The notes: generated by a model not told the origin, from the sequence alone. Shown: positions 43,578 through 63,309, counted from the stretch's first letter. The stretch is 64,000 nt of DNA from an uncultured Flavobacteriales bacterium (GCA_964544885.1 CAZJDX010000004.1:100293-164292); one strand, 5' to 3'. Numbers and translations: made by a program.

Positions 43578-43702
43578 GGTTGCGGAAGGGCGGAAACCGA
43601 AGTTTTCCGGAGCCGGGATCAGGTTTTTGAGTGAGTTATAAAGTGTTGAATAAGCAGAGAGTTAAAACACAAAAATGCATAGAGAAAGATGTTTTATTTA
43701 TC

Positions 43703-44449
43703 CTACCAGTTTTTTTCGAGGTAGGCTAAAAATGGTTCTTTGCGCCGGGTGGAAACTTCAATTTGTTTGTTATCCGAAAGTGTGACGAAACCACCTTTTC
43801 CCCGATTGTAGCTTTTAATAAAGCGGGTATTTATAAGGTGTGAATTATGTACCCTGAAGAAACCGTGATCCGTGAGTAATTCCTCAAATTCTTTTAAAGT
43901 TTTGGCAACCATAATTTTGGATTGATCCTTTAAAAAAATGTGAGTGTAGTTTATTTCGCTTTCAAGTCTTACAATTTCATCTGTATTCAGATAGGTATAA
44001 CCGGTTAAAGTCGGTACCGCTATCCGTTTGGATGTATGATGAATATTATGAATCAGTGTTTCAAATTTCCTGGTTTTTTCAATTTCAGAAATCCTTTTGC
44101 TAAGTTTTCCGACAGCGCCGGAGAGGTCTCCCGCATCCACAGGTTTCATCAGATAATCAATGGCGCTAAATCTGAATGCCTGAACTGCATACTTCTCAAA
44201 GGCAGTAGTAAAGATTACCTCAAAGTTTATTTCTTTAAACTGCTGAAGCAGATCAAACCCGGTTCCGTCGCTCATAGAAACGTCCAAAAAAATAAGTTCG
44301 GGTTTCAGTCTTTCAATACCATTTTTTGCGTCTTTAACATTTTTAAAACTATCCATCAGCAGAATGCTCTGCTTACAGTTCTCTTCAAGCAACCTGCTGA
44401 GACGGTCAATGCAGTGTTGTTCATCGTCTATGATTATTGTTCGTATCAT
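43703..44449 (-). CDS. LytTR-family two-component response regulator (REC + LytTR DNA-binding domain)
   Basis: REC domain (IIDDE…FLDVSMSDGTGFDLL…) followed by a LytTR domain (…IVRLESEINYTHIF…FRVHNSHLIN…). Confidence 0.9.
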   Translation of the reverse strand: MIRTIIIDDEQHCIDRLSRLLEENCKQSILLMDSFKNVKDAKNGIERLKPELIFLDVSMSDGTGFDLLQQFKEINFEVIFTTAFEKYAVQAFRFSAIDYLMKPVDAGDLSGAVGKLSKRISEIEKTRKFETLIHNIHHTSKRIAVPTLTGYTYLNTDEIVRLESEINYTHIFLKDQSKIMVAKTLKEFEELLTDHGFFRVHNSHLINTRFIKSYNRGKGGFVTLSDNKQIEVSTRRKEPFLAYLEKNW

Positions 44450-44460
44450 TATCCGGAATA

Positions 44461-46557
44461 TTAAAAGTTGCTGATGAGCGGAAGTTTTACTTCTACACGC
44501 AATCCTTCAGTTAGATTGGAAAAATTTATTTCTGCAGCAGATTTTTTAATTTTGTTAAGAATATCAATTCGTGCCTGGGTTATTTTCATGCCCATTGAAG
44601 ATTTTTCATGAGCGGAGGTGGTTTGCGAAAAATTTCCTAAACCGGGACCATTATCATCCACCCTGCATTTTATCATATTTCCTTCCCGCACAATACTTAT
44701 GTTGATCCTGCCTTCCGTTTTTTCCTTATTGGCAATACCATGCCAAATGCTGTTTTCAACAAAAGGTTGCAGAATCAGAGGAGGGATCATCGTATTTTCA
44801 GTATCAATTTCAGAATCTACGTATATGGTATAGCTGAATTTATTTTGAAGCCGCATTGCCTCCAGTTGAATGTAATTTTCTAAGGCTTTCAAGTCTTTAC
44901 TTAATGTAATTTCTTTCGATTCTGAATTTTCCAGGATCTGGCGGATAAGGGTTGCAAATTTTACAAGGTATGTATCTGCGCTCTTGGTGTCATTTTTATT
45001 TATATAATCGCTTATTGAATTCAAAGAATTAAAAATAAAATGCGGATTCATTTGCGCTCGCAGGGCTTTCATCTCCGTACTGGTTACCTCTGCATTGAAT
45101 TCAGCTTCTTTCTTTTCAAACATGGCATCGCGACGTTTTTTGTACGACACAAAAATACCTGTTCCGGCCAGTAAGATGAGCATGCTGCCTGCAATGGAAT
45201 AATTACGGATCATTTGTTCTTTTTCGATTTGTGCACTTGAAATAGCCTGTTGCTTATCGCTTTCAGCCATAATCAAAGCTTCTTTTTTATCAAATCGAAA
45301 CTGCGTTTCCATTTTAATGATATCCGTTTGCTTATCAATATTGAAAACACTGTCTTTCAGGCTGGAATATTGCATTGCGAATTCATAAGCCTGTTGATAG
45401 TCCTTTTTCCTGTAGAATAGTGTACTCAGGCTTTCGGTTATTTCCGCTTGCAGAGCAACATTACCTGTATTTCTTAAAATTTCCAGTGCATTTTGTTTAA
45501 GACGTATTGCTTTTGTGGATGAATCCTGAATTTTGAATTTTCTTAGCAAGGATAATGGTGCCTTTGAATAAATAGTTCCGATTTCATGCAGCATAAAGGC
45601 AGTGTTGATTTTGTCACCCAGCTCATCGAATACCTTATATGCTTTAGTTAAGTAATCCAAAGCATTCTCAAGCTCAAGCCGGTTGCTTAGTAGTATTCCA
45701 ATGTTAGCCATGTTGCTGGCTGTTCCGAACCGGTAATTTGCTCTTTGATTTATGCTTAAAGCGTTCTGATAACTTTTCAAGGCATTCTCAGCCTCATTTA
45801 TACTCTCGTAAATATTTCCTAAATTGTTAAAGCATTTGGCAAGATTAATATCATCTTCGGTCCTTGTGTAAATTTTAACTGCATTTTGCTGATATTCAAT
45901 TGCCTTTTTAAAATTTCCGGTGTTTTTAAAGAGGATTCCGATATTGGAATAAGTATTTGCAATATTATTACTGTCAGAGGCATTTTCATATAATTTCAAG
46001 GAACGTAAGTAATATTCAAGAGCTGTTTCATAGTCTGACATATTCATATATACAACTCCGATATTGCTCAAGATAGCCGCCTGAAGAACGGAATTTCCCA
46101 GTTCAACCTGAAGAGCAAAGGCAGTTTGATAACTTTTCAATGCTGATGAATAATCCGACAAGTTAGAGTGGCAGATTCCTGTATTTGTCGCGATACTCGC
46201 ACATGCCTGTAGTCTGCCATTCTTTTCGTTAATCGAATACGATATTTTGTAATATTCAATGGCCAGCGAGTCTTTTCCTGCCTTAGCATAATTGTATGCT
46301 TTAGCAAAATATGCCGTTGCCAGCTTTGGTTCATGTTTGATTTTTGTTGTCAAACTAATGGATGAATCGGCATAGAGTATACCGGTCTCCGGATCAAAGT
46401 CAGCATAACTCAACGAAATGTTGTTCAGGACAGTGGCACGGACGGAATCTGACTGGGTATGCTCCTTGAGTAGTAGGAGAAGTGAATCAATTTCTGCCTG
46501 ATTCGCAAACGTGTAATTCATAAGAAAAAGACAGAGAATAATAATTAAATTTTTCAT
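44461..46557 (-). CDS. Sensor histidine kinase of LytS/YehU type (His_kinase 5TM-less form) with a periplasmic/extracytoplasmic TPR-repeat sensor region. Operon partner of the LytTR regulator.
   Basis: Signal peptide, about 8 TPR-like repeats (repeated A..Y…A..Y hydrophobic patterns), one TM, then the His_kinase motif (NPHFIFNSLNSISDYI) and HATPase_c (…ISIVREGNMIKCRVDDNGPG…). The stop/start spacing to the response regulator is 12 nt. Confidence 0.88.
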   Translation of the reverse strand: MKNLIIILCLFLMNYTFANQAEIDSLLLLLKEHTQSDSVRATVLNNISLSYADFDPETGILYADSSISLTTKIKHEPKLATAYFAKAYNYAKAGKDSLAIEYYKISYSINEKNGRLQACASIATNTGICHSNLSDYSSALKSYQTAFALQVELGNSVLQAAILSNIGVVYMNMSDYETALEYYLRSLKLYENASDSNNIANTYSNIGILFKNTGNFKKAIEYQQNAVKIYTRTEDDINLAKCFNNLGNIYESINEAENALKSYQNALSINQRANYRFGTASNMANIGILLSNRLELENALDYLTKAYKVFDELGDKINTAFMLHEIGTIYSKAPLSLLRKFKIQDSSTKAIRLKQNALEILRNTGNVALQAEITESLSTLFYRKKDYQQAYEFAMQYSSLKDSVFNIDKQTDIIKMETQFRFDKKEALIMAESDKQQAISSAQIEKEQMIRNYSIAGSMLILLAGTGIFVSYKKRRDAMFEKKEAEFNAEVTSTEMKALRAQMNPHFIFNSLNSISDYINKNDTKSADTYLVKFATLIRQILENSESKEITLSKDLKALENYIQLEAMRLQNKFSYTIYVDSEIDTENTMIPPLILQPFVENSIWHGIANKEKTEGRINISIVREGNMIKCRVDDNGPGLGNFSQTTSAHEKSSMGMKITQARIDILNKIKKSAAEINFSNLTEGLRVEVKLPLISNF

Positions 46558-46693
46558 TTAAGTCGAAGTAAGTTGATGGACAATGCAAGAGTTGTAAATT
46601 ATGCAAAATATAAGTTCTTTCCGGCAGAAAATAAATAGCGATTGCCAGCGGGTTTAACCTGCCCTAGGTTTACCGGATACAAAGCTTATCAAA

Positions 46694-46897
46694 ATGTGTC
46701 TGTCTGTTAGAGTATCCAAAAGAGAAAAGCAGGTATTATTTCTGATTGCATCAGGCAAAACAAGCGGGGAAATTGGACTTTTACTCAACATCAGTATAAA
46801 AACTGTTGAAACACATCGAAAAAACCTGCTCATCAGATTTAATGCTTCCAATGCCTGCCACTTGATATACAAAGCTGTAAAATGTGGTATTATTTAA
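46694..46897 (+). CDS. Standalone LuxR/GerE-type helix-turn-helix transcription regulator (67 aa, no receiver domain)
   Basis: Matches the LuxR C-terminal HTH consensus along its length: LSxREKQVLxLIASGKTSGEIGLLLNISIKTVETHRKNLLIRF…. Divergent from the LytTR two-component operon and followed by about 510 bp with no ORF. Confidence 0.55.
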   Translation: MCLSVRVSKREKQVLFLIASGKTSGEIGLLLNISIKTVETHRKNLLIRFNASNACHLIYKAVKCGII

Positions 46898-47407
46898 AAT
46901 TTTCGACGAATTAAAGCGGCTATGAATTTTTGTATATGAAGTACCATGTTTTTCCAACAGGGCTAAAATAGTAAGATTTCTTTTCGTTTTCAGCCAAATA
47001 CTGTTTTCTGACAAATTGAATGTATTGGCTGGAAACGCAGAGATCACAAATTTTCTGAACCACTATACAGGCTTACTATTCTATTGATATTCCAATTTCA
47101 GGGTTTTCAGGTATTGTTTGCAAAGTTTATTGATTCAATCTTTGGGCAATAATGTTTTGTATTTGTAACATCCTCCTGTATGATTGCAAGCAAAGTGACA
47201 TGCCTTTAGAATTTCAGCTCGTTTTCTAAAACAGCAAAGCTGCCGAAATTGAGATATCCTTGATTTTAAGCTTAAAAATGTGTTTTTGTATCCGGATTAT
47301 GCAGATGGTTTTTATGCTGTTTATTTCATAGATCCTTTGGGTATAGCAGAAAATAAGTGGAGACTGGCAATTAATAAATACAGATTGATGCCGGATTGGG
47401 TAGGGTT

Positions 47408-47415
47408 TAGTTTTG
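47408..47415 (+). promoter_or_regulatory. Candidate Bacteroidota -7 box TAGTTTTG (TAnnTTTG), with an ATTG about 20 nt upstream, positioned about 40 nt before the likely true lipoprotein start at 47455
   Basis: Read directly: …cagATTGatgccggattgggtagggttTAGTTTTGaccc…. Confidence 0.3.
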
Positions 47416-48075
47416 ACCCATGATTTTAAAAACAACTCTAAAAACCACACTCTCATGAAAACGACAAGCACAATCACCCTAATCCTGCTTACCCTGATTC
47501 TGACTATTCTTTCTTCCTGCAGAAAGGATGATGAAACTCAACCAAAGAATAAAGCACCCGGACCGAACTATCCTGCTAATCCCAATAACCCGACTATCAT
47601 TAACGGAACGGACTATGTGGAATTCAAACTGGACGGAAATCAAATTATACTTAATAATTTCTCCTATACCCCGCCTGCTTTTAGTGTCGGAATTGCTTCC
47701 ATTTTGAGTGAACCGGTGATACCATTGTATCAGTTTATCGGACAATTTCATAGTCTTCCGGGTTCAGAAATGAGTTATGTTTTGATGAATCTTTCTGATA
47801 CGGTTCCACTAATTCTTGGCCGACATGATTTTCAGGGCTATAGTGTTTATAGACGATTTTCACTGAGTTTGATCACTAAAGACGGAAATTTTTTACTCCC
47901 TGATGGAAACTGTATCAGCAACATAGAATTCAGCAGGCTGGATACGATTGACGAAGGAAAGGTGGAGGGTACATTTAGTTTGTCAAACCTGAATCTACAG
48001 GACGCTGATGAAAACATTATATCCAGAAATCATTCAATTAATGATGGTAAGTTCAGTTTGACCCTGAAGAAATAA
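47413..48075 (+). CDS. Lipoprotein of unknown function (paralog A). The track start is a TTG; the likely true start is the ATG at 47455 (MKTTSTITLILLTLILTILSSC, lipobox LSSC).
   Basis: Signal peptide ending in a lipobox Cys; shares blocks with the next ORF (NGxDYVEFKLDGNQI and EGTFSLSNLNLQDADENIISRNHSINDGKFSLTLKK). Confidence 0.65.
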   Translation: MTHDFKNNSKNHTLMKTTSTITLILLTLILTILSSCRKDDETQPKNKAPGPNYPANPNNPTIINGTDYVEFKLDGNQIILNNFSYTPPAFSVGIASILSEPVIPLYQFIGQFHSLPGSEMSYVLMNLSDTVPLILGRHDFQGYSVYRRFSLSLITKDGNFLLPDGNCISNIEFSRLDTIDEGKVEGTFSLSNLNLQDADENIISRNHSINDGKFSLTLKK

Positions 48076-48101
48076 TCTAACGAATATTAAACCACCAAAA
48101 A

Positions 48102-48671
48102 ATGAAAACTTTATCTCACTTTATGGTATTCTTTATTCTTCTGTTTGTATCGGCATCGTGTCAGAAAGAAGATGCTACCAGTCCGGCAATACCACCGGTT
48201 GTTAACGGCGAATTTATTGAGTTCAGAATTGATGGCCATCAATATAAAATAACAGGATCCACAGCAGGAGGCACGGTGAATGCTGATGCCGCAGCTATGT
48301 TGTTTGATTCCGGATTCCAGAAAGGGCTGGTATTTCGCTTTGTCAACATGGATCCGCTTCAAATGGTTGGTTTCACCGTTTACGACCTGACTTTCCCAAT
48401 GGGGAATCGGTATACTATTTCAGCTGATCCAAATCAGACAAATCCGTATAATCCAAGTGAATTTGGCTTTATTATGGAAGACGAAAGACAATATATTTTC
48501 TCTCTTGCTACAACAGGAAGTTTCGAATTTACCAGTATTGATAGTGTAGTTGGTGGAATTGTGGAAGGTACCATGCACCTTACGAACCTTGATCTCACTG
48601 ATGAGAATGGGGACGTTATTTCTTCAGGACATACATTGACAAATGGAAAATTTAGAGTGATAATTCAATAA
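48102..48671 (+). CDS. Lipoprotein of unknown function (paralog B), tandem duplicate of the preceding gene
   Basis: MKTLSHFMVFFILLFVSASC lipobox. Conserved blocks NGEFIEFRIDGHQYKI and EGTMHLTNLDLTDENGDVISSGHTLTNGKFRVIIQ align with paralog A. Confidence 0.7.
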   Translation: MKTLSHFMVFFILLFVSASCQKEDATSPAIPPVVNGEFIEFRIDGHQYKITGSTAGGTVNADAAAMLFDSGFQKGLVFRFVNMDPLQMVGFTVYDLTFPMGNRYTISADPNQTNPYNPSEFGFIMEDERQYIFSLATTGSFEFTSIDSVVGGIVEGTMHLTNLDLTDENGDVISSGHTLTNGKFRVIIQ

Positions 48672-48826
48672 AATGAATGAATTCCTGTCCTCTACATTAG
48701 TATGGAGATTAAATAGGGAAAAATCAATTGGCGATTCCGAAAAATATTGTACTTATTACTTGAACTTACAAATTAATATATATATTTGGAATTTCCGATT
48801 AATATTCACATTTAAAACCAATTAAC

Positions 48827-50215
48827 ATGAAATACATTTTTAGCATCATCATAGTCTCATTTCTCTCCCTTGCTGCTGATGCTCAGTCCTTAAGCCCGGA
48901 GGCTGAGTTTCTCTTCAGGGATGTAAAAACGAATCTCTCCATTGCAGAAAAAAATGAAATAGCCAAATCGGCCGGAACACTTTCGAAAGACAGATCTACC
49001 TTTCAGTACATAGATCCCGATTTAGATGAACCGATTGATATTGGGACTTCCGTTTCTATTTATGATTTCAACAAGGATGGCATTGAAGAAGTTGTGTTGT
49101 CAACAAGCAGTTCATACTTATATGGGAATACAGGTGAAGGGTTTGAATTACTTGTGAAAGGGATGGCCAATGCGTATCAATCGGTTTTAAACTTGCCAGG
49201 CATACCTGAATTTGAGCAGAGTTCGGGTAAACAGTATCCCGATATTACTATCGGGGGTCCGGGTTTTGTTTTTCCGGTTTATGGATGGAATGGAAAAAGC
49301 TATGAAATTGTAGGGGAGGTTAAAGAGGGTGGGTTTAAAGTCAATAATGAAGTTGCTGATGTTGCATCATCCAATGTACATAAGGAAAATGACCTACAGG
49401 GATCTTCAGGAATGGAAAGTGTTTCAGAGCAATTGTCACCACCGGCAAATATGCTCTTCCATAATGTGATGTCTAATCTTACAAATGCTGAGAAAAACAT
49501 GATTGCCATGCTGTCCCAGGTTTCTCCTCAGGATACGCTGGAGAAAACAAAGAAGGGAAGATCAAAAACGGAATACGATGTTTATCCGGTTGATTTCAAC
49601 CGTGACGGAAGCGATGAAATATTCCTGCGCGTGACAAACCTTCTCCTGGGTTTACCTACGTATAATTATTCTTTCTACGCGAAGGATCATTCGGGGAATT
49701 ACAAACCCGCCCCGGGGAAGATTGGCCCTGCGGTCCGGATTATGCTCAATGGAAAGCAAGGCTTTCCCGATTTAATCAAAGGTGTTGCCGGTTTCTCACG
49801 AGAAATATGGATATGGAATGGCAGCAACTATGCAATTGCGCAAAAGCTGGACCCGGATGCAAAAGTAGCTACAGAACTAATGAATGTTGAGGATGCGAAC
49901 AAGTATTATAGCTCCCACAGCAACGTTAAGGGATCCAATACCGCGTTCAACCATTTTAACGGCGAATGGTACAGCCATGATTATAAATATTCATTTCGTA
50001 TCAATGGAAAGGAGGGAGTGGCAACCTTGTCGAACTCTCCAAATTACAGAGTTGGTGATCTCATGTTGCGTATTGATTCTTTCGATGGCGCCCTCTATCA
50101 CGGACAGCAAATATTTACCGATGGGAAATGGCATAATGTTACCATGCAATTACTGCCCAATGAAATTGTAATGAAAGGGAGCGGATATAACTGGAAGATG
50201 GTGCGGACAAGGTGA
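48827..50215 (+). CDS. Secreted protein with an internal duplication of a ~150-aa module carrying FG-GAP/VCBS-like DxNxDGxxE Ca-binding-type motifs
   Basis: Signal peptide MKYIFSIIIVSFLSLAADAQS. Repeat 1 (LSPEAEFLFRDVKTNLSIAEKNEIAKSAG…YDFNKDGIEEVVL…WNGKSYEIV) aligns with repeat 2 (LSPPANMLFHNVMSNLTNAEKNMIAMLSQ…VDFNRDGSDEIFL…WNGSNYAIA). Confidence 0.65.
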   Translation: MKYIFSIIIVSFLSLAADAQSLSPEAEFLFRDVKTNLSIAEKNEIAKSAGTLSKDRSTFQYIDPDLDEPIDIGTSVSIYDFNKDGIEEVVLSTSSSYLYGNTGEGFELLVKGMANAYQSVLNLPGIPEFEQSSGKQYPDITIGGPGFVFPVYGWNGKSYEIVGEVKEGGFKVNNEVADVASSNVHKENDLQGSSGMESVSEQLSPPANMLFHNVMSNLTNAEKNMIAMLSQVSPQDTLEKTKKGRSKTEYDVYPVDFNRDGSDEIFLRVTNLLLGLPTYNYSFYAKDHSGNYKPAPGKIGPAVRIMLNGKQGFPDLIKGVAGFSREIWIWNGSNYAIAQKLDPDAKVATELMNVEDANKYYSSHSNVKGSNTAFNHFNGEWYSHDYKYSFRINGKEGVATLSNSPNYRVGDLMLRIDSFDGALYHGQQIFTDGKWHNVTMQLLPNEIVMKGSGYNWKMVRTR

Positions 50216-50340
50216 GGCTGAGGGATGCAGACATTCTTACTATGAGAACTCGACAAAACAGAACACTAATCAATTTGAAATATTTTAAGGTTATTGAAAT
50301 ACCTATTTACCCTATTAACTAACCATAAAAACCAAAAAGC

Positions 50341-51417: not shown

Positions 51418-51435
51418 TTTTAAATTCAGAAAATT

Positions 51436-52446: not shown

Positions 52447-52460
52447 TAGTTAATGAATAT

Positions 52461-52524
52461 AAATCCCATCTTATGCGATTGAAAGAAAAGTATTAACAAA
52501 ATTGATTGCATAAGATGGGATTAT
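52461..52524. repeat. Long inverted repeat (15-bp perfect arms AATCCCATCTTATGC / GCATAAGATGGGATT separated by about 34 nt) in the gap between convergent genes
   Basis: Read directly. No U-tract follows on either strand, so it is not a canonical intrinsic terminator. Confidence 0.4.
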
Positions 52525-52817
52525 CACATAATTTAAGCGCATTTACTGTGAGAGATTATTTCAACAGAACTGACCAGGTCTTACACGGGCAATTGACAAA
52601 TATTCTGCTTTATTCTCTCCTCTTAACAAGAAAAATGCCCTAAAGTCAAATCGGGATGAAAAAATGGGGAGCTTACATTCACCTTTGCAAAAGCTTCCTG
52701 CAGGGAATGCACTTTAAGTTTCTTGTATCTATTCTTAATGGGGAACCGTACCGTATTCTTTCGAACCCGTCGCAATTGAATGGATCAAACCCCGCTGCGA
52801 AACTCAGGTACAGCCGG

Positions 52818-55800: not shown

Positions 55801-57353
55801 ATCCAGCGCCACTTGCTTTCAGTATCATTGTTTCTCCAATACTTATTATTATAATCAACAATCCAGTAGCCGATAAATATTTTATGAATTATGTAATTGG
55901 TAAATTCATGAATGTCGATTTGTTCAGAAACGTAATGGTAATTATCGTCCACACTCAGGTCATTGTTTTCAATAAAGTAAATCAGATTATTATAATGGTT
56001 TCTACTGCCTGAGACGACGCTTATACTGTCTTCGAGAAGATCAAGGTTGGCATTATTGGTGTAGTGATTGTTTGAAATATAGTTTTCATCCAGCCTTTCT
56101 CTTATTTCATAAATGCCGTTGTACTGTCCATTGATAAAAACAACACAAGGCTGATATTCCTGATAATCCACGTCTATTTTATTTTTTATCAGAGAGGTGG
56201 ATAAGCCCTCACGGAAATAGGAAAGATTATAATCGTTACCGCCATTTCTTAAGAGAAAGGAATAATAAACGACGGATTCTCTGTCATTAAATAATTTATA
56301 GTTTATTTTATCATCGCCGTATTTTGATTTTACTTCGAGAGAAATTGGTCTTTGAGGTAAATTGAAAATGCTTGATCCGAATAGTTTCGCACCGGCATTT
56401 ACATTAAATTTTCTTTGTTTATTCAGATCAAAATATTCAACATAAGCCGGAACTTCTCTACCCTTCATTGCATTTTGCAGTATGCCGTATTCAAAGTCAT
56501 AGAAGTTTGAAATGTCTGTGGAAATTGAAATAACAGGAAGGTCGATGTTTTCATTTATGAAATAGGATTTAGTAATGACCTTACCCGGTAATTTTCCCGG
56601 TTGGTACGCACGAGCTTTGATAACATAATTACGTGCAATGTTAAGGCTTCCGGTAAATACAGGAGAACTTTCAACCGGTGTTGTTCCATCAATGGTAAAC
56701 CGTATGAGAGAATTGGGTTCCGAAGAACTGATTTGCAATTGTTGAGCAGAAGGGTAAAAACCCTCAGAAATTGAGAATATCGGTTCGGATGCATAATTCA
56801 GGGACGTTGAACCGAAAGATGAATTAATTTTACCGGGCGTAGGTTCACTGTAATAATACCATCCCTGGGAATTTTGATTATTTCTTCCAATTGAAATATC
56901 ATATTCCTGTACATCTAATTTCAGACTATCCTCAAGTTCTTCATGATTGTTATATAGATAAATTGTTTCGCCCAGACTGCTGACCTTAAAGTTAGCATGT
57001 AAAGAGTTTATGGTAATTGTATCATTTTTGTATTTACTGTACGCGCGTTCTCCGGGATATTTGGATTCCCCGTCCGTCCATATAATCAGATATTGATCTG
57101 CTGACAAGACCTGGGATGGCAGTATCCATTTTCTCTTTATATCAGGATCATCAGTAATAGAATAGTTTTGGAGATTGATAGCGTATGCGGCTGTATTGTG
57201 TAACTCAATAAAATCCGAAAATTCTCCAAAATCAGGATCGCTTAAAACGGAACTGTTAAGGGCAAGAATTTCATTTATTCTGATTTGCGCATTTAAACAC
57301 AGGCTCAGTAATATGAAAACAATGAGCAGTGAATTTTTCATAGGATTAGTCAT
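52818..57353 (-). CDS. CotH-kinase-family protein with three lamin-tail domains (LTD), a central parallel beta-helix region and a T9SS C-terminal sorting domain (1511 aa)
   Basis: LTD motifs: INEILALNSS…DFIELHNT…INLQNYSITDD (N-terminal), VHINEINYHS…DWVEIFNRT…VSGWRLS, and LFINEVMASN…DWFEIFNSS…LGGLYLTDQ. CotH core: …VVFINGQYNGIYEIRERLDENY… and …NNKYWRNNDTESKWRWITNDNEHAFG (the GKW-W-DlD-sFG-like signature). Beta-helix repeats (…NNIVENNIIYNCTDKGISIG…). C-terminal …VFPNPAKNEFQI…IYNLLGQKL…KGVYFISV = T9SS CTD. Confidence 0.85.
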   Translation of the reverse strand: MTNPMKNSLLIVFILLSLCLNAQIRINEILALNSSVLSDPDFGEFSDFIELHNTAAYAINLQNYSITDDPDIKRKWILPSQVLSADQYLIIWTDGESKYPGERAYSKYKNDTITINSLHANFKVSSLGETIYLYNNHEELEDSLKLDVQEYDISIGRNNQNSQGWYYYSEPTPGKINSSFGSTSLNYASEPIFSISEGFYPSAQQLQISSSEPNSLIRFTIDGTTPVESSPVFTGSLNIARNYVIKARAYQPGKLPGKVITKSYFINENIDLPVISISTDISNFYDFEYGILQNAMKGREVPAYVEYFDLNKQRKFNVNAGAKLFGSSIFNLPQRPISLEVKSKYGDDKINYKLFNDRESVVYYSFLLRNGGNDYNLSYFREGLSTSLIKNKIDVDYQEYQPCVVFINGQYNGIYEIRERLDENYISNNHYTNNANLDLLEDSISVVSGSRNHYNNLIYFIENNDLSVDDNYHYVSEQIDIHEFTNYIIHKIFIGYWIVDYNNKYWRNNDTESKWRWITNDNEHAFGKLGGDDYMDNTLSKVSGITGNLPDWSTFLFRNLLENEGFKNDFIQRTSTFLNTVFNPAVTLPIADSLKALLSLQMPRHINKWGTPLSLSSWHSNIDFIKTFLQYRGEHLRQHITTQFGIQDSAHVEINISGGGNVSLCGVLLKDSIYSGQYFKNIPIKLKAFPKPGYKFIEWQGSGNTSPEMVFIPVSDTSITAVFAPDPISIIPPLIQNDTILSVAYSPWYGLEDVIIKPGAKLIVEPGVEIFICENKSIYVEGGLKIHGTPDSLISIRADTIYSSKNDKASIRWGSIIADNPGDSILIQYVNIRNGSYGNDPIKYFSTISAYNANIRFEHSDISDGGPPFYAEGGNVYIGNSAFHTLNPCNGFISLNNINNPIVEDCSFNGNKATDTDALDLKGVTNAVVKNNYIHDFSGTNCDGIDFGINSVNNIVENNIIYNCTDKGISIGSQSNATIYRNLIYDCGLGIGVKDSSSVAYLNQNTFYRNHHSIACYEKSTLRGGGKAFIQNSILAGSIYETVSIDDKSEVEISYSLSDKELLTGNHNIFADPQFIHATTGNLQLKNTSPCIDSGNPLSPPDPDSSAADIGAYYTHHGNYGLTVHINEINYHSADNYNTGDWVEIFNRTSQAVDVSGWRLSTVKNNFSLKQNTVILPGDYLVICEDTLLFKSYHPAVNNICGNLFYELDNKSDKISLYDHNGNLIHSIRYSDSRPWPALADGRGATLELNESKEGNLVQDWHESFLLMGSSGAANTLPPDFSGLFINEVMASNTGIIADDFNEYDDWFEIFNSSGSPINLGGLYLTDQISNYDKHQLPLNFPALTIIPAGGYYILWADNQIEQGAKHVAFKLNASGESLGIYQRRLDDYLLIDSLSFSIQSNRSTWGRYPDGTTSIYYLEPTPTLSNLLLRKQENLNSNVIVFPNPAKNEFQIRTKSHLAGSDFTIYNLLGQKLFTGKIEPEITIVNISTLLKGVYFISVPPEKPVKLIKY

Positions 57354-57635
57354 TTACATCCAGAATGCTTGTAATTATGCACAATGTAGTTTACGTACTT
57401 CTTCATACTTTTTTGCTTGATCAAAAAAGTATGCAAAAAAATCAAGCCAAATTCCCGCCTGCAACGGGCAGGGATTCTGCCTGCCGCACGAGCAGGCGCT
57501 TCCCGCCGCAATTAATCAAATTCATGCTTCGAATTGTATATAAATAAAATTCCATTTTGCCTCTAAAAATTTGCTCACAAAAAATTCAGAGCACAATTGA
57601 TAAGGATTATGGAACTAAGTGGTTAATCCTATTTT

Positions 57636-59324
57636 TCATTCCCTGATTAATTTATGTATAGCTCTGTTGTTTTTTGAGTCAACAACAACAAAGTAGATCC
57701 CGGATGCAATTTCATTTGCGTCAACTTTCAGTATTTCAAATGGTGAATTGTGATAATCGGATCTGATCAATCGTCCATCAATTGAATAAATAGATACCTT
57801 GGTTCCTGATACAGGTTTAGTCAGAAACTTTATGAAGAAAAAATCGTTTGCCGGATTTGGGAAAAGAGAAATTTTCATTGATTTGTTCAGTTCATCTATA
57901 TTGATTGTAGAATCATTTTCAAAATAACTTATAAAGCTTACTTGTTTTTTTCCAAAGCGAATTGGGCTTATGTGAACATAAATACTGTCCACTTCCCCGC
58001 TATTTTCCAATACATGACTATCGAAGGTTATAGTGTCCGATTCAAACATACCTCCATAATAGAAATTTTCATTTGATGCGGCCATAACAATAGTTGCCTC
58101 GTCAAGTAAGTGTCCTCCGAAAAAATTTCCCCATAACTCATCTCCTGTTGGTCCATACTTAAGAACAAATGCCTGGGGGTAATAATAACTTATGTAGTAT
58201 TCATTCAGGAGTGTTGTGTTGGCAAAATGAAGTGTATCGCTGAAAGAAAATCCTGCAACATAAGAATTGCCAAATGCATCAACTGTGATAGCTCTGGCAA
58301 GATCATAGTTTTCATCGTATATGGAACTCGAGACTCCTCCGTTTTCCTTTTGCCAGATTTTATTTAAAGCACTGTCAAGCTTGGTTACATATATTTTAGA
58401 AGATTGAAGTGGCCAGCCCCAGCCCATCCTCCATGTCATTTTTTCACCGCAGGTAAATAGTTCATTGTTGAGAGATGTTATATCGTTTACCTGGGTAAGA
58501 CTGGTGTCAGCGATACCCGACATGTAGAGACCGGCTGAATTGTATTTTACAATAAAGCCACTTTGTGTTCCATATCCAATAGTGTGTGTATTGCTGAATG
58601 TAGCGTAACCATAAAAGGATCCGGAGAGATAAACATTTTGGTTGTCATCCAAAGTTAATGATGTGGAAGTCATGGAATTGAAACCGACACTATCCGTGGT
58701 TCCGGATACTTCCCACAAGAGATTATTGTTGTTGTCATACTTTTTTACAAAAACATTGTAAATTGGATGTAGAGAAGAGTGACCGCTTACATAAACATTT
58801 CCTGAGCTATCCACACCTAACCCGGAAATTACGTCAGCCAGATTTGTTCCAATATTTCGTGCCCATTCAACAGTATTGTTAGAATTGAATTTAACAAGAA
58901 AACCATCTGATTCACCTGAGTTAATTAATACAGAACTACCGATGGTCAGTGATAAGCTATAATAGGTTCCGGCAACATAAATGTTACCCATACTGTCGGA
59001 TACGATATTCGAAATGTTATCCGATTCAAGACCGCCGATTTTATTTGCCCATAAATAATTCCCGTTCTTGTCCATGACAACGAAGAAGGCATCTTCCTGA
59101 CCTGAATTGGTAAGTGTATGCGAGTTAAATGTTAGGGTTGGAGAGGTGAATGAGCCGGCTATAATTATATTGTCACCGCTATATTTACAAATGGCATTCA
59201 GTTTTGTATTGCTGTTTATAAGTCCAATCTGATTTGCCCACTGGCAATTTTGTGCTTTTGTGTGCATATTGATTGAGAAGCAAAGACACAGGAAAAGCAG
59301 TCTTAGGTAATGTTTTATTTCCAT
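57636..59324 (-). CDS. T9SS-secreted SBBP-repeat (beta-propeller) protein
   Basis: Signal peptide; repeated …(N/G)N(I/V)Y(V/L)(A/S)G… SBBP-type blades (NIYVAGTYYS, NVYVSGHSS, NVYLSGSFYG, NSYVAGFSFS); C-terminal …LFPNPANDFFFIKF…IYSIDGRLI…SGIYFVVV = T9SS CTD. Confidence 0.8.
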   Translation of the reverse strand: MEIKHYLRLLFLCLCFSINMHTKAQNCQWANQIGLINSNTKLNAICKYSGDNIIIAGSFTSPTLTFNSHTLTNSGQEDAFFVVMDKNGNYLWANKIGGLESDNISNIVSDSMGNIYVAGTYYSLSLTIGSSVLINSGESDGFLVKFNSNNTVEWARNIGTNLADVISGLGVDSSGNVYVSGHSSLHPIYNVFVKKYDNNNNLLWEVSGTTDSVGFNSMTSTSLTLDDNQNVYLSGSFYGYATFSNTHTIGYGTQSGFIVKYNSAGLYMSGIADTSLTQVNDITSLNNELFTCGEKMTWRMGWGWPLQSSKIYVTKLDSALNKIWQKENGGVSSSIYDENYDLARAITVDAFGNSYVAGFSFSDTLHFANTTLLNEYYISYYYPQAFVLKYGPTGDELWGNFFGGHLLDEATIVMAASNENFYYGGMFESDTITFDSHVLENSGEVDSIYVHISPIRFGKKQVSFISYFENDSTINIDELNKSMKISLFPNPANDFFFIKFLTKPVSGTKVSIYSIDGRLIRSDYHNSPFEILKVDANEIASGIYFVVVDSKNNRAIHKLIRE

Positions 59325-59498
59325 TCTATCTTAATATTTAAGCAAATATAAGACCTGTCCAATGAAATATGAAGGCCGGATTGTCAGTAAAGAGTAAGTA
59401 TTCATTATGGTTGATACGAACCGCAAAGCCGGATTATTAATTCAACAGACGTTCTTGAACTGGCTATCTGCATAGTTCTTCTTTACCTGTGCAACTGA

Positions 59499-60113
59499 TT
59501 AAAATGACTTCTTCACTTTCGCGAAAGCTTCCTGAAGCGAGTGTACTTCCAGTTTTTTGTATATGTTCTTGATGTGAAAACGAACGGTATCGTGAGAAAT
59601 ATTCATCTGGTCGGCAGTCATCTTATAACTGTTACCGAGACTCATAAATTGCAATACTTCCTGTTCGCGTTCTGTCAGAACAGAGTTAATAAAGTTGTTG
59701 AATGACCTGACTACCATTCGGGCAATCCGTGGACTCATGGGAGCTCCTCCCATTCTGACTTCTCTCACCGCATCCAGAATCTCATCTGGTGAGGCATTCT
59801 TGGTAATATAACCACAGGCGCCGGCGCAGAGTGAGTCAAATACGGTTTTATCTTCCGCAAAAACAGTGAGCATGATCACATCGAGTGAGGGTAAAATGCC
59901 TTTCAGCTTGCGTACACATTCGATCCCTGAGATTCCGGGTAGTTTAATATCCATCAGTACTACCTGAGGATCAAGTTCAGGAATTTTCTGCAAGGCCTCT
60001 TCCGCATTGGAGAATGCTCCCACACAACTGAATTCTGCCGGATGTTCTTTAATGGCGATCTGCAAGCCTTCACGCAGATCATTATTGTCATCGACCAGTG
60101 CGATTGTGATCAT
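59499..60113 (-). CDS. NarL/FixJ-family response regulator (REC + LuxR-type HTH)
   Basis: REC (IALVDDNNDLREG…VLMDIKLPGISGIE…) and a C-terminal LuxR HTH (LTEREQEVLQFMSLGNSYKMTADQMNISHDTVRFHIKNIYKKL). Its start overlaps or abuts the stop of the upstream kinase. Confidence 0.92.
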   Translation of the reverse strand: MITIALVDDNNDLREGLQIAIKEHPAEFSCVGAFSNAEEALQKIPELDPQVVLMDIKLPGISGIECVRKLKGILPSLDVIMLTVFAEDKTVFDSLCAGACGYITKNASPDEILDAVREVRMGGAPMSPRIARMVVRSFNNFINSVLTEREQEVLQFMSLGNSYKMTADQMNISHDTVRFHIKNIYKKLEVHSLQEAFAKVKKSF

Positions 60114-60114
60114 A

Positions 60115-63100
60115 TCAGGATAGATTTTTTAAAGGAATTTCAAGTTCCAGAACAGTGCCATTCATGCCGGAATCAAGTTTTATTTTTGCTCCAATTACAT
60201 CACTCCGCTTTTTAACATTGTTCAGACCATTGCCCGACTTATTCCAATCCGCCTGAAATCCTTTTCCATTGTCTTCAAGCTTAATGGTGATATGATTGTT
60301 TTCTCTGAACAGGTTTAGTTTTACCCGGTCGCTTTCGGAATGCCTGAAACTGTTATGCATCGCCTCCTTAAAGATAAGGAGTACATGCCTCTTTTGAGAA
60401 AGGGGTATACTGATACCGTTGAATTCACCGTTGAGTTCTTCCGCCTGGAAACTGACTCCGGTCTGATCGAAAAGCGACTCGCCGAATTCTTTCATCTGCC
60501 TGTACAGGTCTTTCACCGAATCTTTTCCGGGATCCATGGCCCAAACCATATCTCGCATGGTATGATAAAGGCTGCCGGCTGTGTCAATGATCTTTTCCAG
60601 GTGTTCACGCAGCTCCTTTTGCTCAGGACCAATCTTTTTCTTCAGAATTTCTCCGAACCATGAAATGGTTGTCAGTTTGTGTCCCAGTTCATCATGAAAA
60701 TCGGCAGCTGTTTCCTTGCGGATTGCTTCGATTTCTTCAACCTGTTTCAGCCGTAACTTAAGCAGATAAGCATGAAGTAACCAGGCGACGAGACCAATAA
60801 AAAGCGCAAGGAAAAGATAAAACCAGGCGGTTTTCCAGAATGGAGGCTGGATGATGATGGCCAGACGGTCTGCCTGTTCATTGAACACTCCATCCTGGTT
60901 GGAACCTTTCACTTCGAATATATATTCACCGGGAGGCAGCTGGGAATAGTTTATCTGATTGCCCGTACTGCTCTCGTTCCATTCTTTGTCAAATCCCTCA
61001 AGTCTGTATTGAAATTTGTTCTTGACCGGATTGGTATACTGCAAGGCAATGAACCTGATCGAAAAATTATTCTGATCATGTTTCAGGCTGATCTTCTTTT
61101 CATCCGCAAAGGAAAGCAGATTCTTTTGTTCGCCCGGCATTGAAAAGGAGGTGATATATACCCTGGGAACAACGCTGTCAATTCTGATCTCAGCCGGATA
61201 GAATGAAGTATAACCGGCAATGCCACCAAAAAGAAATTCATTATCGGCTGCCCTGAAGAAAGCGCCACCGTTGAACTCATTGCTTTGCAGCCCGTCATGA
61301 ATATCAAAATTCCGGAAGCTCAGATTTTCCGGATCGAAATTGGTCAGACCACCGTTCGTACTCATCCAAAGCGTGCCATCATCAGGATTTTCAAGTACAC
61401 CATAAACGGCATTATTTTTTAGTCCGTCCCTGGTGGAGAAATTTCTGAAAGTTGTTTTCTGATCCTTGTAGTTTGCGCGGATAAAACCATTGGGAGTGCA
61501 AATCCAGATATTTCCTTTCTTGTCTTCCAGCAGATCGTTGACCGTATGCGAACGAAGGCTGTTGGTATCTAGCGGATCATGTTTATAAATAAGGGGCCTG
61601 GAAAAATCATAAGTGCTGTCAACGGGATTGTTGGGAAACATAAATAAGCCCATGCTGCTTCCCAGCCAGATATTCTGATCCCTGTCAATAATGCTGCACA
61701 TGTAATTGAACCCAAAAGGTAGCCTGCGGCCTTCGCTGAAAGCGTTTACAATTTCTCTTGACTTCTGTGACTTCAGCGAAAAATGATACAATCGGCCGGG
61801 AAGCACGATCAGCATATCTCCGTTTTTATCATAGCTGATATCCCTTACGGATACATCAGGGAAATCAGGATTTACCGTAATCCTTTCAAATTGAGGAGTA
61901 CCGGAATTTCTGTCGTTTACTTTATAGAGTCCTTTCTGGGTCCCGGCCCATAACTGATTGTTGCGGTCGAGTGAAAGGTGCATGATATAATTGCTTGCCA
62001 GTTCATTTTTCTTTCCCTCGCAGCAACGGTACAAGTCGTAGTCGTCTTTCGTTTTATCAAAACGTATCAGTCCTTCTGTTGTTCCGATCCAGTAATTATT
62101 CTCCTTGTCTTTCAGTATGCTGAAGACAAATGCCGATGACATGACATTGTCAAGGTGGTTGGTATAAAAATTTTTATTTTTTACAGACACCAGTTTTATA
62201 AGTCCCTGCGCATGTGAGCCCACCCATATGATCCCTTTGCTGATATTGTCTTCCCGCACACACATCACGCCGCCGGTTTCCTCATTTTTTTTCCCGGTAC
62301 TGAATAACTCCGGTGTTGGCGCTGCCTTGAATACGTTCTTTACTTTATTTGCGCTGATGGTATATAATCCCTGCCCGCCGGCGATCCAGAGCGTACCGTC
62401 TGAACTGAAAGTGAAATCATAAAACTCTTTCATCCCGTCAGCGGGACCTTTTTCAGGAACAGGAATTTTAACAATGCTGTTATCCTTGCCGTTGATTACA
62501 CATATTCCCTTGTAAGTACCAACCCAGTAATTTCCATAAGGATCATGCTGAAAAGCCAGGACCTGATCAGTATAGAGTCCATGTTCGCGGGTGAAAATGT
62601 TACCGCCTTCCGGAAGGAATTTATCATTCCCCCTGAAAGACAGCTTCAGTAATCCTCTGGAAGTTCCAATCCATAGATCTCCTTCTTTGCTTTCATATAT
62701 CGTTGTGATGGCAAGAAGGGTGGCGGTGCTGGTATCGCGGAATACAGTCTCAAATTCAATGAGGGGGTCTGAATTGCCGGATTCAGTTACAATAATCCGT
62801 TGTAATCCGTTTCCGGTTCCAAGCCAGATCGTGCCACCTGGCCCTTCATAGATTACATGGATTGTATTGTTGAGAATGCCTGACTTGTTTTTGGGATCAT
62901 GTTTGAAAGTCCTGAAATTATCATGGTCAGGCCGGTACAAATTCAATCCGTAATTGTCGGTACCAATCCAGAACCTGCCCCTGGAATCGTGCAGTGTTGA
63001 TCTGACATTCCCCGAAGAGAGTGAAGTGGTATCAAAAGGTTTATGATAATATGTCTGGAAACCAAGTCCGTCGTACCTGTTCAATCCGTCCTGCGTCCCT

Positions 63101-63309
63101 GCCCAGATAAAGCCCTGCGGATCCTGAGAAAGCGACTGGACCATGCTTTGGGAAAGCCCTTCCGCCAGGGAGATTTTCACCATCTTATAGGGCTGCGAAA
63201 AGGCGAAGCCAAAGAAAAAGACGGCCAAAACAGAAAGGAAACAAGGCAAATTTTGTCTTCCTGCCTTAGTCTTTGCTGACGAAGTTCGCCATTTCCTGCA
63301 GGATCTCAT
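60115..63309 (-). CDS. Hybrid-architecture sensor histidine kinase with a periplasmic two-component-regulator beta-propeller (Reg_prop repeats) and a Y_Y_Y domain, one TM, HisKA_3 and HATPase_c. Cognate kinase of the NarL-type regulator.
   Basis: Signal/TM segment, multiple GLNRYDG / GLxxx propeller repeats, Y_Y_Y-like region, TM (WFYLFLALFIGLVAWLL), H-box (DFHDELGHKLT) and ATPase motifs (…LEDNGKGF…GNGLNN…). Confidence 0.9.
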   Translation of the reverse strand: MRSCRKWRTSSAKTKAGRQNLPCFLSVLAVFFFGFAFSQPYKMVKISLAEGLSQSMVQSLSQDPQGFIWAGTQDGLNRYDGLGFQTYYHKPFDTTSLSSGNVRSTLHDSRGRFWIGTDNYGLNLYRPDHDNFRTFKHDPKNKSGILNNTIHVIYEGPGGTIWLGTGNGLQRIIVTESGNSDPLIEFETVFRDTSTATLLAITTIYESKEGDLWIGTSRGLLKLSFRGNDKFLPEGGNIFTREHGLYTDQVLAFQHDPYGNYWVGTYKGICVINGKDNSIVKIPVPEKGPADGMKEFYDFTFSSDGTLWIAGGQGLYTISANKVKNVFKAAPTPELFSTGKKNEETGGVMCVREDNISKGIIWVGSHAQGLIKLVSVKNKNFYTNHLDNVMSSAFVFSILKDKENNYWIGTTEGLIRFDKTKDDYDLYRCCEGKKNELASNYIMHLSLDRNNQLWAGTQKGLYKVNDRNSGTPQFERITVNPDFPDVSVRDISYDKNGDMLIVLPGRLYHFSLKSQKSREIVNAFSEGRRLPFGFNYMCSIIDRDQNIWLGSSMGLFMFPNNPVDSTYDFSRPLIYKHDPLDTNSLRSHTVNDLLEDKKGNIWICTPNGFIRANYKDQKTTFRNFSTRDGLKNNAVYGVLENPDDGTLWMSTNGGLTNFDPENLSFRNFDIHDGLQSNEFNGGAFFRAADNEFLFGGIAGYTSFYPAEIRIDSVVPRVYITSFSMPGEQKNLLSFADEKKISLKHDQNNFSIRFIALQYTNPVKNKFQYRLEGFDKEWNESSTGNQINYSQLPPGEYIFEVKGSNQDGVFNEQADRLAIIIQPPFWKTAWFYLFLALFIGLVAWLLHAYLLKLRLKQVEEIEAIRKETAADFHDELGHKLTTISWFGEILKKKIGPEQKELREHLEKIIDTAGSLYHTMRDMVWAMDPGKDSVKDLYRQMKEFGESLFDQTGVSFQAEELNGEFNGISIPLSQKRHVLLIFKEAMHNSFRHSESDRVKLNLFRENNHITIKLEDNGKGFQADWNKSGNGLNNVKKRSDVIGAKIKLDSGMNGTVLELEIPLKNLS

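Follow-up and report, generated by a model that had tools for sequence, protein, structure and literature searches.

A probable mosaic of two secreted-protein cassettes, one of them adjoining a LytTR-type sensor system, in an uncultured Flavobacteriales bacterium

The DNA analysed here (the window) is one strand of 64,000 nt from an uncultured Flavobacteriales bacterium (GCA_964544885.1, CAZJDX010000004.1:100293-164292), and this study concerns its positions 43703-63309, where the genes of seven consecutive secreted proteins lie between two two-component systems. Related loci, labelled L083 to L105, were compared with the window. A preliminary description of the region had read it as a single accessory cassette of surface proteins, bracketed and gated by the two systems. 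The open reading frames (ORFs) were found where that description had placed them, and Pfam and NCBIfam domain calls bore out the regulators and kinases that it had named on either side. All seven proteins also carried the N-terminal signal-like segments ascribed to them, as judged by eye and by hydropathy and not with a dedicated predictor; the segment of the SBBP protein fell below the hydropathy cut-off used, and its call is taken from reading the sequence. The type-A C-terminal domains (CTDs) of the type IX secretion system (T9SS) reported for three of the proteins were recovered as Por_Secre_tail/TIGR04183 matches, so that the products of 51436-52446, 52818-57353 and 57636-59324 combine a CTD with an N-terminal signal as type-A T9SS cargo does, and the other four secreted proteins carry no CTD. 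The genes and features of the region, which we divide into Module A (43703-52446) and Module B (52814-59441), are as follows.

43703-44449, minus strand: LytTR regulator of Module A, 248 aa, with Response_reg (E=4e-17) and LytTR (E=2e-16) domains; GC content at third codon positions (GC3) 0.39.
44461-46557, minus strand: sensor kinase of Module A, with TPR, His_kinase (PF06580) and HATPase domains (Pfam).
46603-46644, plus strand: candidate site of two repeats 21 bp apart (GCAAAATATAAGT at 46603 and GCAGAAAATAAAT at 46624), in the divergent region between the kinase and LuxR genes.
46694-46897, plus strand: stand-alone GerE/LuxR helix-turn-helix protein of Module A, 67 aa (Pfam GerE, E=2.8e-15).
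47346-47387, plus strand: candidate LytTR operator of two repeats 21 bp apart (GCAGAAAATAAGT at 47346 and GCAATTAATAAAT at 47367), upstream of lipoA.
47455-48075, plus strand: lipoprotein LipoA, 206 aa counted from M15, lipobox LSSC; the listed ORF starts at a TTG at 47413.
48102-48671, plus strand: lipoprotein LipoB, 189 aa, lipobox SASC.
48827-50215, plus strand: secreted FG-GAP-like protein (FGGAP), 462 aa, with a weak FG-GAP match and an internal duplication.
50341-51417, plus strand: core right-handed beta-helix protein (BH; fold from AlphaFold), 358 aa, with a signal peptide, no lipobox and no CTD.
51436-52446, plus strand: core T9SS cargo (Rep3), 336 aa, with three Ig/FN3-like repeats and a type-A CTD (Por_Secre_tail, E=3e-10).
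52678-52756, minus strand: relic of a NarL/GerE gene, its last ~29 codons with no ORF, in the 371-bp gap between Rep3 and CotH (tblastn, 76% amino-acid identity).
52814-59441, minus strand: SBBP-CotH cassette (Module B), with nucleotide homology to L084 and L083 over this exact span, broken only by a 289-bp insertion.
52818-57353, minus strand: giant T9SS cargo, 1511 aa, with three LTD domains, CHB_HEX_C/Fn3_assoc, CotH, beta-helix and CTD (Pfam).
57342-57630, strand not assigned: 289-bp insertion resembling a miniature inverted-repeat transposable element (MITE), accounting for the 282-bp gap between SBBP and CotH; absent from L084.
57636-59324, minus strand: SBBP beta-propeller T9SS cargo, 562 aa (SBBP, E=9e-16; Por_Secre_tail, E=1e-13).
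59499-60113, minus strand: NarL-type regulator, with Response_reg and GerE domains (Pfam).
60115-63309, minus strand: kinase with Reg_prop, Y_Y_Y and HisKA_3 domains (Pfam).

The results lead us to conclude that the stretch from 43.7 to 59.4 kb is probably a compositionally foreign mosaic of two independent secreted-protein cassettes joined by rearrangement, with Module A under the putative control of its own sensor system. Alignment to relatives, which had been proposed as the check on the single cassette, found the two modules apart from each other. L094 carries the genes of LipoA, LipoB, FGGAP, BH and Rep3 in the same order (49, 64, 74, 62 and 76% identity), followed on the opposite side by orthologues of the LytTR regulator and the TPR kinase (62 and 41%), and has neither CotH nor SBBP. 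On the other side, L083 and L084 carry SBBP-CotH at 84-86% amino-acid and 87-89% nucleotide identity; this homology extends to 4 bp past the CotH stop at one end and to 117 bp upstream of the SBBP gene at the other, and beyond it lie other, unrelated T9SS cargo genes, without a two-component system and without the other five genes. These arrangements show that the seven genes make up at least two independently inherited units, which speaks against the claim that they form one cassette. A metagenome assembly at NCBI (GCA_011525865.1, L090) and two Logan runs contain the locus as well, and a relative of ~96% identity (L093) shares the junction between ComM and the LytTR gene together with the first cassette genes; thus the close relatives found, identical and ~96%, both carry the left edge of the island. 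Among the matches listed, ComM identity drops to 72-74% in the next nearest genomes, which have no island gene within 10 kb of that gene. Across the 80 GTDB species listed for ComM synteny only the SIS-ComM adjacency was kept, and at no more than 74% identity these species are too distant to supply an empty site.

The composition of the block was distinct from that of its surroundings. GC3 amounted to 0.44-0.56 in 24 upstream genes and to 0.32-0.43 in the ten genes of 43703-59324, with no overlap between the two sets (Mann-Whitney p=6e-6), whereas GC content at second codon positions (GC2) was the same in both, so that amino-acid composition does not account for the difference. The low GC3 was uniform over the ten genes and broke sharply at both edges, from 0.53 in ComM to 0.39 in the LytTR gene and from 0.35 in SBBP to 0.47 in the NarL gene; the NarL/Y_Y_Y pair, at 0.47-0.49, was core-like. 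These edges put the LytTR/TPR-kinase pair and the LuxR solo inside the odd block and the NarL/Y_Y_Y pair outside it. The left system therefore does not bracket the island, as had been supposed, but is a part of it, and the present bracketing by two systems is an accident of arrangement. Two T9SS cargo genes of the core, which encode a giant protein and a subtilase (described below), had GC3 values of 0.50 and 0.52, which indicates that low GC3 is not just a trait of secreted-protein genes here. Furthermore, every relative of Modules A and B was found in a genome of 31-38% GC, where it matches its own flanks; at 37-40% GC the block resembles these genomes, in contrast to its own core at 46% GC. 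The block thus differs from the core as an island does, and its composition favours horizontal acquisition of 43.7-59.4 kb, which supports the word accessory in the preliminary description.

A scar marks the junction of the two modules. The NarL relic sits exactly at the A/B boundary, and blastn aligned it with the 3′ end of the intact gene 59499-60113 (NTVRFPIKNRYKKLKVHSLQEAFAKV in the relic, DTVRFHIKNIYKKLEVHSLQEAFAKV in the gene) at 61 of 79 nt (77%, E=4e-14). Read along the minus strand, the Y_Y_Y kinase gene is followed in turn by NarL, SBBP, CotH and the NarL relic, an arrangement suggesting that the SBBP-CotH cassette was inserted into a NarL-type gene or next to one. Judging from the relic and from L105, where a NarL-type system adjoins a related pair, such a system may once have abutted Module A. 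In the same gap, 19 bp past the Rep3 stop, lies a perfect 12-bp inverted repeat (52465-52476 and 52508-52519; GCATAAGATGGG and CCCATCTTATGC in the minus-strand reading) with a 31-nt loop, which could be a terminator or a recombination site. Within Module B, the 289-bp insertion is bounded by 9-bp direct repeats (ATGAAAAAT, at 57333-57341 and 57631-57639), a target duplication that recreates the CotH start codon; its ends are inverted (AGGATTA...TAATCCT), and it contains GC-rich hairpins. Since the SBBP stop overlaps the CotH start (ATGA) in L084, the insertion appears to have separated two genes that formerly overlapped and were coupled in translation. Apart from the same locus in L090, the window and the compared loci yielded no second copy, so that the status of a repeated MITE is unproven and we call the insertion MITE-like only. 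The long AT-rich gaps that had been taken as a sign of regulation are thus present, measuring 557 bp (515 bp if lipoA is taken to begin at the TTG), 371 bp and 282 bp, but two of the three are a gene relic and a transposon-like insertion, and their GC content of 0.34-0.38 is only slightly under that of the island's coding sequence. The 557-bp gap holds a candidate operator near its 3′ end.

Module A has its conserved core in its last gene pair. AlphaFold modelled the product of 50341-51417 as a right-handed parallel beta-helix (pLDDT 91.3) with no Pfam hit, in line with its earlier call, and the three repeats reported for Rep3, whose gene starts 18 bp further on, were recovered in the sequence and in the model (AF2, pLDDT 84). 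Foldseek matched Rep3 to tandem beta-sandwich arrays, namely the Aureispira grappling-hook protein GhpA, adhesin extender, SGBP-B and GbpA. A word-indexed search returned 84 proteins of the beta-helix family and an exhaustive profile search 2,642 (E<=1e-30) to 5,257 (E<=1e-10) representatives of clusters at 50% identity, with almost every representative full-length at 320-360 aa; neither the query nor ten sampled members matched a Pfam or NCBIfam model. Nine independent contexts were compared (the window, L094, L097, L099, L101, L102, L103, L104 and L105), with beta-helix identities of 27-66%. The results showed that a T9SS-CTD gene immediately follows the beta-helix gene, 11-170 bp downstream, in all nine, and that the partner has at its N-terminus the same EY(F/W)x(D/N)xDxGxG repeat domain in every case (29-76% identity), within proteins of two or three repeats or within longer fusions of up to 1881 aa. 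A two-component system adjoins the pair in eight contexts, the ninth locus (L101) ending 198 bp upstream of the gene. The system is of the LytTR plus TPR-His_kinase type in six, NarL plus TPR-HisKA_3 in L104, and NarL plus Reg_prop/Y_Y_Y in L105, where it lies divergently adjacent to a distant beta-helix/T9SS pair. Two further observations touch these domains. The TPR-His_kinase of L097 (3126-6710, 1194 aa) carries an N-terminal SBBP beta-propeller, which gives the role of a sensor domain there to a fold that the window has as T9SS cargo. The Pfam Y_Y_Y domain is annotated in P0139, a protein distantly homologous to the repeat region of Rep3, and the Ig-like repeat of Rep3 may be related to the Y_Y_Y domain of sensor kinases.

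The two-component system of Module A has the make-up of a LytS/LytTR system, namely a regulator with receiver and LytTR domains adjoining a PF06580 kinase, and only 11 bp separate the two genes. Both domain matches of the regulator exceed the Pfam gathering scores, and its orthologues (62-66%) adjoin the cassette in L094 and L099. For the kinase, His_kinase scored 81.2 bits against a cut-off of 25.2, and HATPase_c was weak (21.6 bits against 26.4). Hydropathy and the N-terminus gave the order signal peptide, ~400 aa of TPR, one transmembrane segment near residue 453, and His_kinase with HATPase; from the signal peptide and the single transmembrane segment, the TPR sensor is predicted to face the periplasm. 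The small LuxR solo is 97% identical in L093 and 54% identical to an 81-aa GerE gene in the same divergent position in L099. An 88-aa ORF on the minus strand (46781-47047) overlaps this gene and is called as a gene in the JGI relative L093. As Pfam and conservation back the LuxR reading and not the antisense ORF, public gene calls appear to overlook or mis-strand a putative small regulator at 46694-46897.

Candidate sites for such a regulator were found in the promoter regions of these loci. The consensus CA(A/G)A(A/T)AATAAAT occurs on the cassette strand in pairs or triplets 21 bp apart in the window, L094, L099 (three places) and L102. In L094 the repeats lie upstream of lipoA, in L102 between the kinase and the first gene, and in L099 as triplets upstream of the beta-helix gene and of a 355-aa gene as well as in the kinase/GerE region. 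The candidate operator of the window lies ~20 bp before the sole Bacteroidota-type -7 box of its gap (TAGTTTTG, 47408-47415). In a histogram of spacings, for which a deliberately loose half-site was used, 12 pairs in the module loci were spaced by 21 bp, compared with 0-8 (mean 3.1) at the other spacings from 8 to 40 (Poisson 9e-5), and 10 of the 12 lay within module promoter regions on the cassette strand. No such spike at 21 was seen in 1.5 Mb of unrelated loci, and none of 500 shuffles reached the observed match in L094, L102 or L103. The repeat of L103 is a different one (CACCCAAC[C/T]GTC), and the LytTR protein there is only 25% identical. According to the published rule, LytTR proteins recognise repeats of 9-11 nt with a spacer of 11-13 nt and no universal consensus (PMC4847170), and AgrA conforms to this LytTR-type repeat geometry (PMC4227749). 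The geometry of the sites found here matches the rule, and we treat them as candidate sites only. No 21-bp repeat pair was found upstream of SBBP or CotH; 10-mers shared among the island's intergenic regions were AT-rich strings only, with no island-wide motif; and a scan for sigma-70 promoters and terminators showed no enrichment over shuffles, as expected for Bacteroidota. The earlier idea that the flanking kinases gate the whole module thus holds in part: conserved neighbourhood and upstream repeats tie the left system to the adjoining secreted genes, but there is no LytTR-type pair before SBBP or CotH, and Module B shows no sign of Module A's control.

What was established directly is the gene content and composition, the mosaic, the folds, the repeat element and the conserved pair with its gene neighbourhood; from this we infer the factor that binds the repeats, the operon structure and co-expression of the five genes, the physical pairing of the core proteins and their biochemical role as follows. 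The kinase, sensing through its periplasmic TPR domain, would phosphorylate its LytTR regulator, which would bind the 21-bp-spaced repeats that precede lipoA (47346-47387) and those that precede the gene of the small LuxR protein (46603-46644) and so switch on lipoA-lipoB-FGGAP-BH-Rep3. The functional core would be the last gene pair, a Sec-exported pectin-lyase-fold beta-helix protein without a sorting domain and an Ig-repeat protein exported and anchored by the T9SS; the former may work with the latter and perhaps depends on it for its location. The pair would most likely act as a glycan-binding or glycan-cleaving surface unit in adhesion or matrix remodelling, and the lipoproteins and the FG-GAP-like protein would be lineage-specific accessories.

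Several points weigh against this proposal. The repeat pairs of the window are weak on their own, with 9 of 12 positions matched and with 87 of 500 (47346-47387) and 32 of 500 (46603-46644) shuffles reaching them, and the motif is AT-rich and was defined after being seen. The LuxR solo or another factor, rather than the LytTR protein, could bind the candidate repeats. The operon structure of Module A was deduced only from strand and spacing, and internal gaps of 155 bp and 125 bp together with a second TAnnTTTG box at 48781 permit internal promoters. In the beta-helix protein no catalytic residues could be identified, the conserved polar residues belonging mostly to a structural Asn ladder, so that the term glycan-active is drawn from the fold. 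The nine contexts were sampled from more than 2,600 clusters and all come from the branch reached by the word-indexed search; across them the type of system shifts, and the link may therefore be to any sensor rather than to a specific circuit. Moreover, Pfam showed no integrase, transposase or other mobility domain in any ORF, scans of the whole window for tRNA and Rfam families returned nothing, and no convincing att repeat was found at the island edges, so that the horizontal origin is argued from composition.

It is possible, though we do not favour it, that the beta-helix protein acts as an enzyme, a lyase or depolymerase of polysaccharides, and that Module A is a non-Sus, T9SS-linked, substrate-induced glycan-degrading locus. 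The best profile match in PDB is a tailspike glycosidase, which speaks for this with little weight (E=2e-4, local only), and identity to every enzyme is 10-18%; the protein and the 10 sampled members, matching no Pfam lyase or hydrolase model, stand outside any defined polysaccharide lyase, glycoside hydrolase or carbohydrate esterase family. Asn, Gly and Pro account for most of the columns that are invariant in the family; few acidic or basic residues of the groove are conserved and no conserved catalytic set is evident, and the same fold is found in adhesins such as pertactin and Vag8. The surroundings point both ways. The partner resembles the surface glycan-binding protein SGBP-B, Y_Y_Y sensors of Bacteroides hybrid two-component systems sense glycans and one such sensor is seen in L105, and the L102 and L103 contexts adjoin glycoside hydrolases or capsule-export genes; the content of carbohydrate-active enzymes (CAZymes) in the neighbourhoods is nevertheless inconsistent from context to context. 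A binding or structural reading and an enzymatic one may both stand.

Rather less probable, in our estimate, is that the 21-bp-spaced repeats are not LytTR operators at all but chance AT periodicity, UP-like elements or sites of the LuxR solo. The A/T-rich motif and the lack of significance of the window pair taken alone would fit this, and the same motif precedes the LuxR-solo gene in L099 and in the window, where it could be autoregulatory. However, the spike occurs only at a spacing of 21 and only in module loci, its pairs keep to the promoter regions and the cassette strand, and L103, with its divergent LytTR protein, has a different repeat sequence. GerE/LuxR proteins, besides, classically bind inverted repeats, not direct repeats spaced by 21 bp.

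We consider it unlikely that the region is native, with old modules merely shuffled and its low GC3 due to relaxed codon usage in weakly expressed or fast-evolving genes. Such a history would explain the lack of mobility genes, tRNA and clear att sites and the left junction between ComM and the LytTR gene that is identical in L093, and with 64 kb in view the genomic spread of GC3 is not visible. It is difficult to reconcile with a GC3 break that is sharp at both edges and uniform over ten genes while GC2 is unchanged, with the GC3 of 0.50-0.52 in other T9SS cargo genes of the window, and with an island GC content equal to that of the low-GC genomes of its closest relatives; the 80 other Bacteroidota species listed, though distant, have no island gene near ComM either. 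A prophage or defence island was dropped, because the Pfam and NCBIfam scans, to which PADLOC and PHROGs were not added, turned up no domain of a phage, an integrase or a defence system. Very improbable, finally, is the original model of all seven genes as one surface or adhesion cassette co-regulated by both flanking systems: the shared low GC3 of the ten genes, the occurrence of both system types next to beta-helix/T9SS pairs elsewhere (LytTR/TPR-kinase in six contexts, NarL/Y_Y_Y in L105) and the NarL relic directly downstream of Rep3, which hints at a NarL-type system once abutting Module A, are outweighed by the separation of the halves in relatives with unrelated flanks, the absence of a Module A-type repeat pair upstream of SBBP or CotH, the core-like composition of the NarL and Y_Y_Y kinase genes and the scar at the A/B junction.

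An 11-bp AT-rich direct repeat, ATGTTTTATTT, the only one found to flank the island, occurs at 43689-43699 and 59310-59320, near both compositional edges, and 1 of 200 shuffles reached it; since one copy lies within the SBBP coding region, the repeat is probably due to chance.

What lies between the regulator gene and the beta-helix gene differs from lineage to lineage. Only in the window lineage and L094 were LipoA, LipoB and FGGAP found; a different secreted protein of 355-357 aa recurs in that slot in L097 and L099, and the variable-slot proteins of the other loci showed no relationship to the LipoA/LipoB profile. LipoA, 49% identical to its orthologue in L094, probably starts at M15 (47455), the Met that gene callers use. 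The tandem lipoproteins are paralogous, as had been described (23% identity, E=2e-13), and a word-indexed search of 5.8 billion clusters returned only three relatives of LipoB. The duplication noted in the FG-GAP-like protein was likewise found (31% over 169 aa, E=4e-14), with two DxDxDG-like DFN(K/R)DG motifs within the duplicated ~170-aa unit; the FG-GAP match is marginal, as the whole protein scores 24.8 bits against 22.1 and no single stretch passes. The L094 orthologue (74%) occupies the same position. In L093 (~96%), two ORFs stand in place of MurB, and the FG-GAP-like gene is interrupted, leaving ORFs of 60 and 135 aa (1229-2270 and 10728-11403); these breaks could be frameshifts or assembly errors, and if they are real the FG-GAP-like gene would be dispensable.

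In Module B, the CotH domain assigned to the giant protein matched PF08757 at 135.2 bits against a cut-off of 23.8 (E=4.8e-39) over profile positions 4-322 of 322, and the LTD and beta-helix architecture and the T9SS CTD of this protein were also recovered with Pfam. The kinase assignment stays putative; comparison of the CotH domain with solved structures gave no usable alignment. Translation of the giant probably starts at M5 (57341), as indicated by the alignment to L084 and by a 1507-aa gene call in L090, and an exact-match look-up of the full protein returned no record because gene callers start at M5. The SBBP T9SS protein was confirmed at 57636-59324 by Pfam, and in L084 an 84% orthologue lies directly upstream of CotH.

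Upstream of the island, the first 43 kb had been contrasted with it as housekeeping. PurL, YidC, PyrG, HolA, AMP nucleosidase, HPPD, MurB and ComM are indeed encoded there, but the contrast was overstated: the same 43 kb also hold a TonB-dependent receptor, a Sortilin/BNR protein and the following two T9SS-CTD cargo genes.

15241-21825, minus strand: T9SS giant of 2194 aa with GBD_T9SS_assoc and Por_Secre_tail, between YidC and CTP synthase.
30320-33220, plus strand: S8 subtilase with a T9SS CTD, 966 aa, core-like GC3.

The GC2 of the 2194-aa giant is unusually high (0.54), and NCBIfam gives the protein no name. Altogether the 64 kb contain five T9SS cargo genes, and from their CTDs the organism very likely possesses a T9SS.

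T9SS cargo makes up a large and mostly unannotated share of Bacteroidota surface biology. A beta-helix/Ig-repeat CTD pair that is linked with a sensor system of its own and with a recognisable candidate operator offers a regulatory and functional unit that can be tested, it brings forward a beta-helix family with thousands of members now without name or model, and it gives a handle on how proteins without a CTD might reach the surface through a CTD-bearing partner. On a tentative wider reading, the beta-helix protein, the repeat T9SS protein and a dedicated extracytoplasmic-sensor system would form a widespread, undescribed surface system of Bacteroidota, in which the CTD-less pectin-lyase-fold subunit depends on its Ig-repeat partner for display or function and a TPR or Y_Y_Y sensor tunes expression to an envelope or glycan cue; the copy in the window would be one that was transferred horizontally and that has lineage-specific lipoproteins as accessories. 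For genome scans the locus carries two cautions: similar secreted genes of uniformly odd composition can be two unrelated cassettes joined at a scar, and AT-rich gaps that look regulatory can be gene relics or MITE insertions.

Compared with known systems, Module A is closest in its regulatory genes to LytS/LytTR systems such as AgrC/AgrA, YpdA/YpdB, ComD/ComE and PlnB/PlnC, with which it shares the receiver-LytTR regulator beside a PF06580-type kinase and a candidate operator just upstream of a promoter, in which two direct repeats of ~10 nt are spaced by 21 bp. It differs from them in that the kinase has one transmembrane segment and a large periplasmic TPR sensor in place of a multi-pass membrane sensor, and in that the host belongs to Bacteroidota and the putative targets are T9SS/Sec surface proteins instead of peptides, toxins or transporters; a literature search for LytTR-controlled T9SS cargo found no relevant description. 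The FimS/FimR system of Porphyromonas gingivalis likewise joins a TPR-containing periplasmic sensor kinase to surface-protein targets (fimbriae) in a member of Bacteroidota, whereas the kinase of the window matches the FimS model NF053520 at E=1e-24 and 86.7 bits, far below the cut-off of 600, has a LytS-type core, and stands beside target genes unrelated to fimbrial genes. LipoA and LipoB align end to end with NF052634, the family of Riean_0653 from Riemerella anatipestifer, all being small Bacteroidota proteins, but score 23.7 and 32 bits against its 57-bit cut-off and thus fall outside it. Riean_0653 is a hypothetical protein needed for haemolysis by a mechanism that is not known (PMC7881567), so the resemblance adds no function to the two lipoproteins.

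With the CotH kinases (Bacillus spore-coat CotH and Mucorales CotH invasins), Module B shares a near full-length Pfam CotH match, here, unlike in those proteins, set within a T9SS cargo of 1511 aa alongside a beta-helix, CHB_HEX_C and three lamin-tail domains; no relevant description linking CotH and T9SS was found in the literature. The Bacteroides polysaccharide utilization loci resemble Module A in placing a sensor beside the genes of a surface-exposed Ig-like binding protein and a pectin-lyase-fold protein, and the likeness extends to the Reg_prop/Y_Y_Y kinase of L105 and the SGBP-B-like fold of Rep3. In contrast to such loci, Pfam found no TonB-receptor or SusD domains, and hence no SusC/SusD pair, between 43.7 and 63.3 kb, delivery to the surface relies on a T9SS CTD in place of lipidation, the sensors are classical two-protein systems and not hybrids, and there is no recognisable CAZyme family. 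A surface-protein operon under two-component control is familiar as a general kind, and the main novelty is the large, unmodelled architecture of beta-helix protein, Ig-repeat T9SS partner and sensor.

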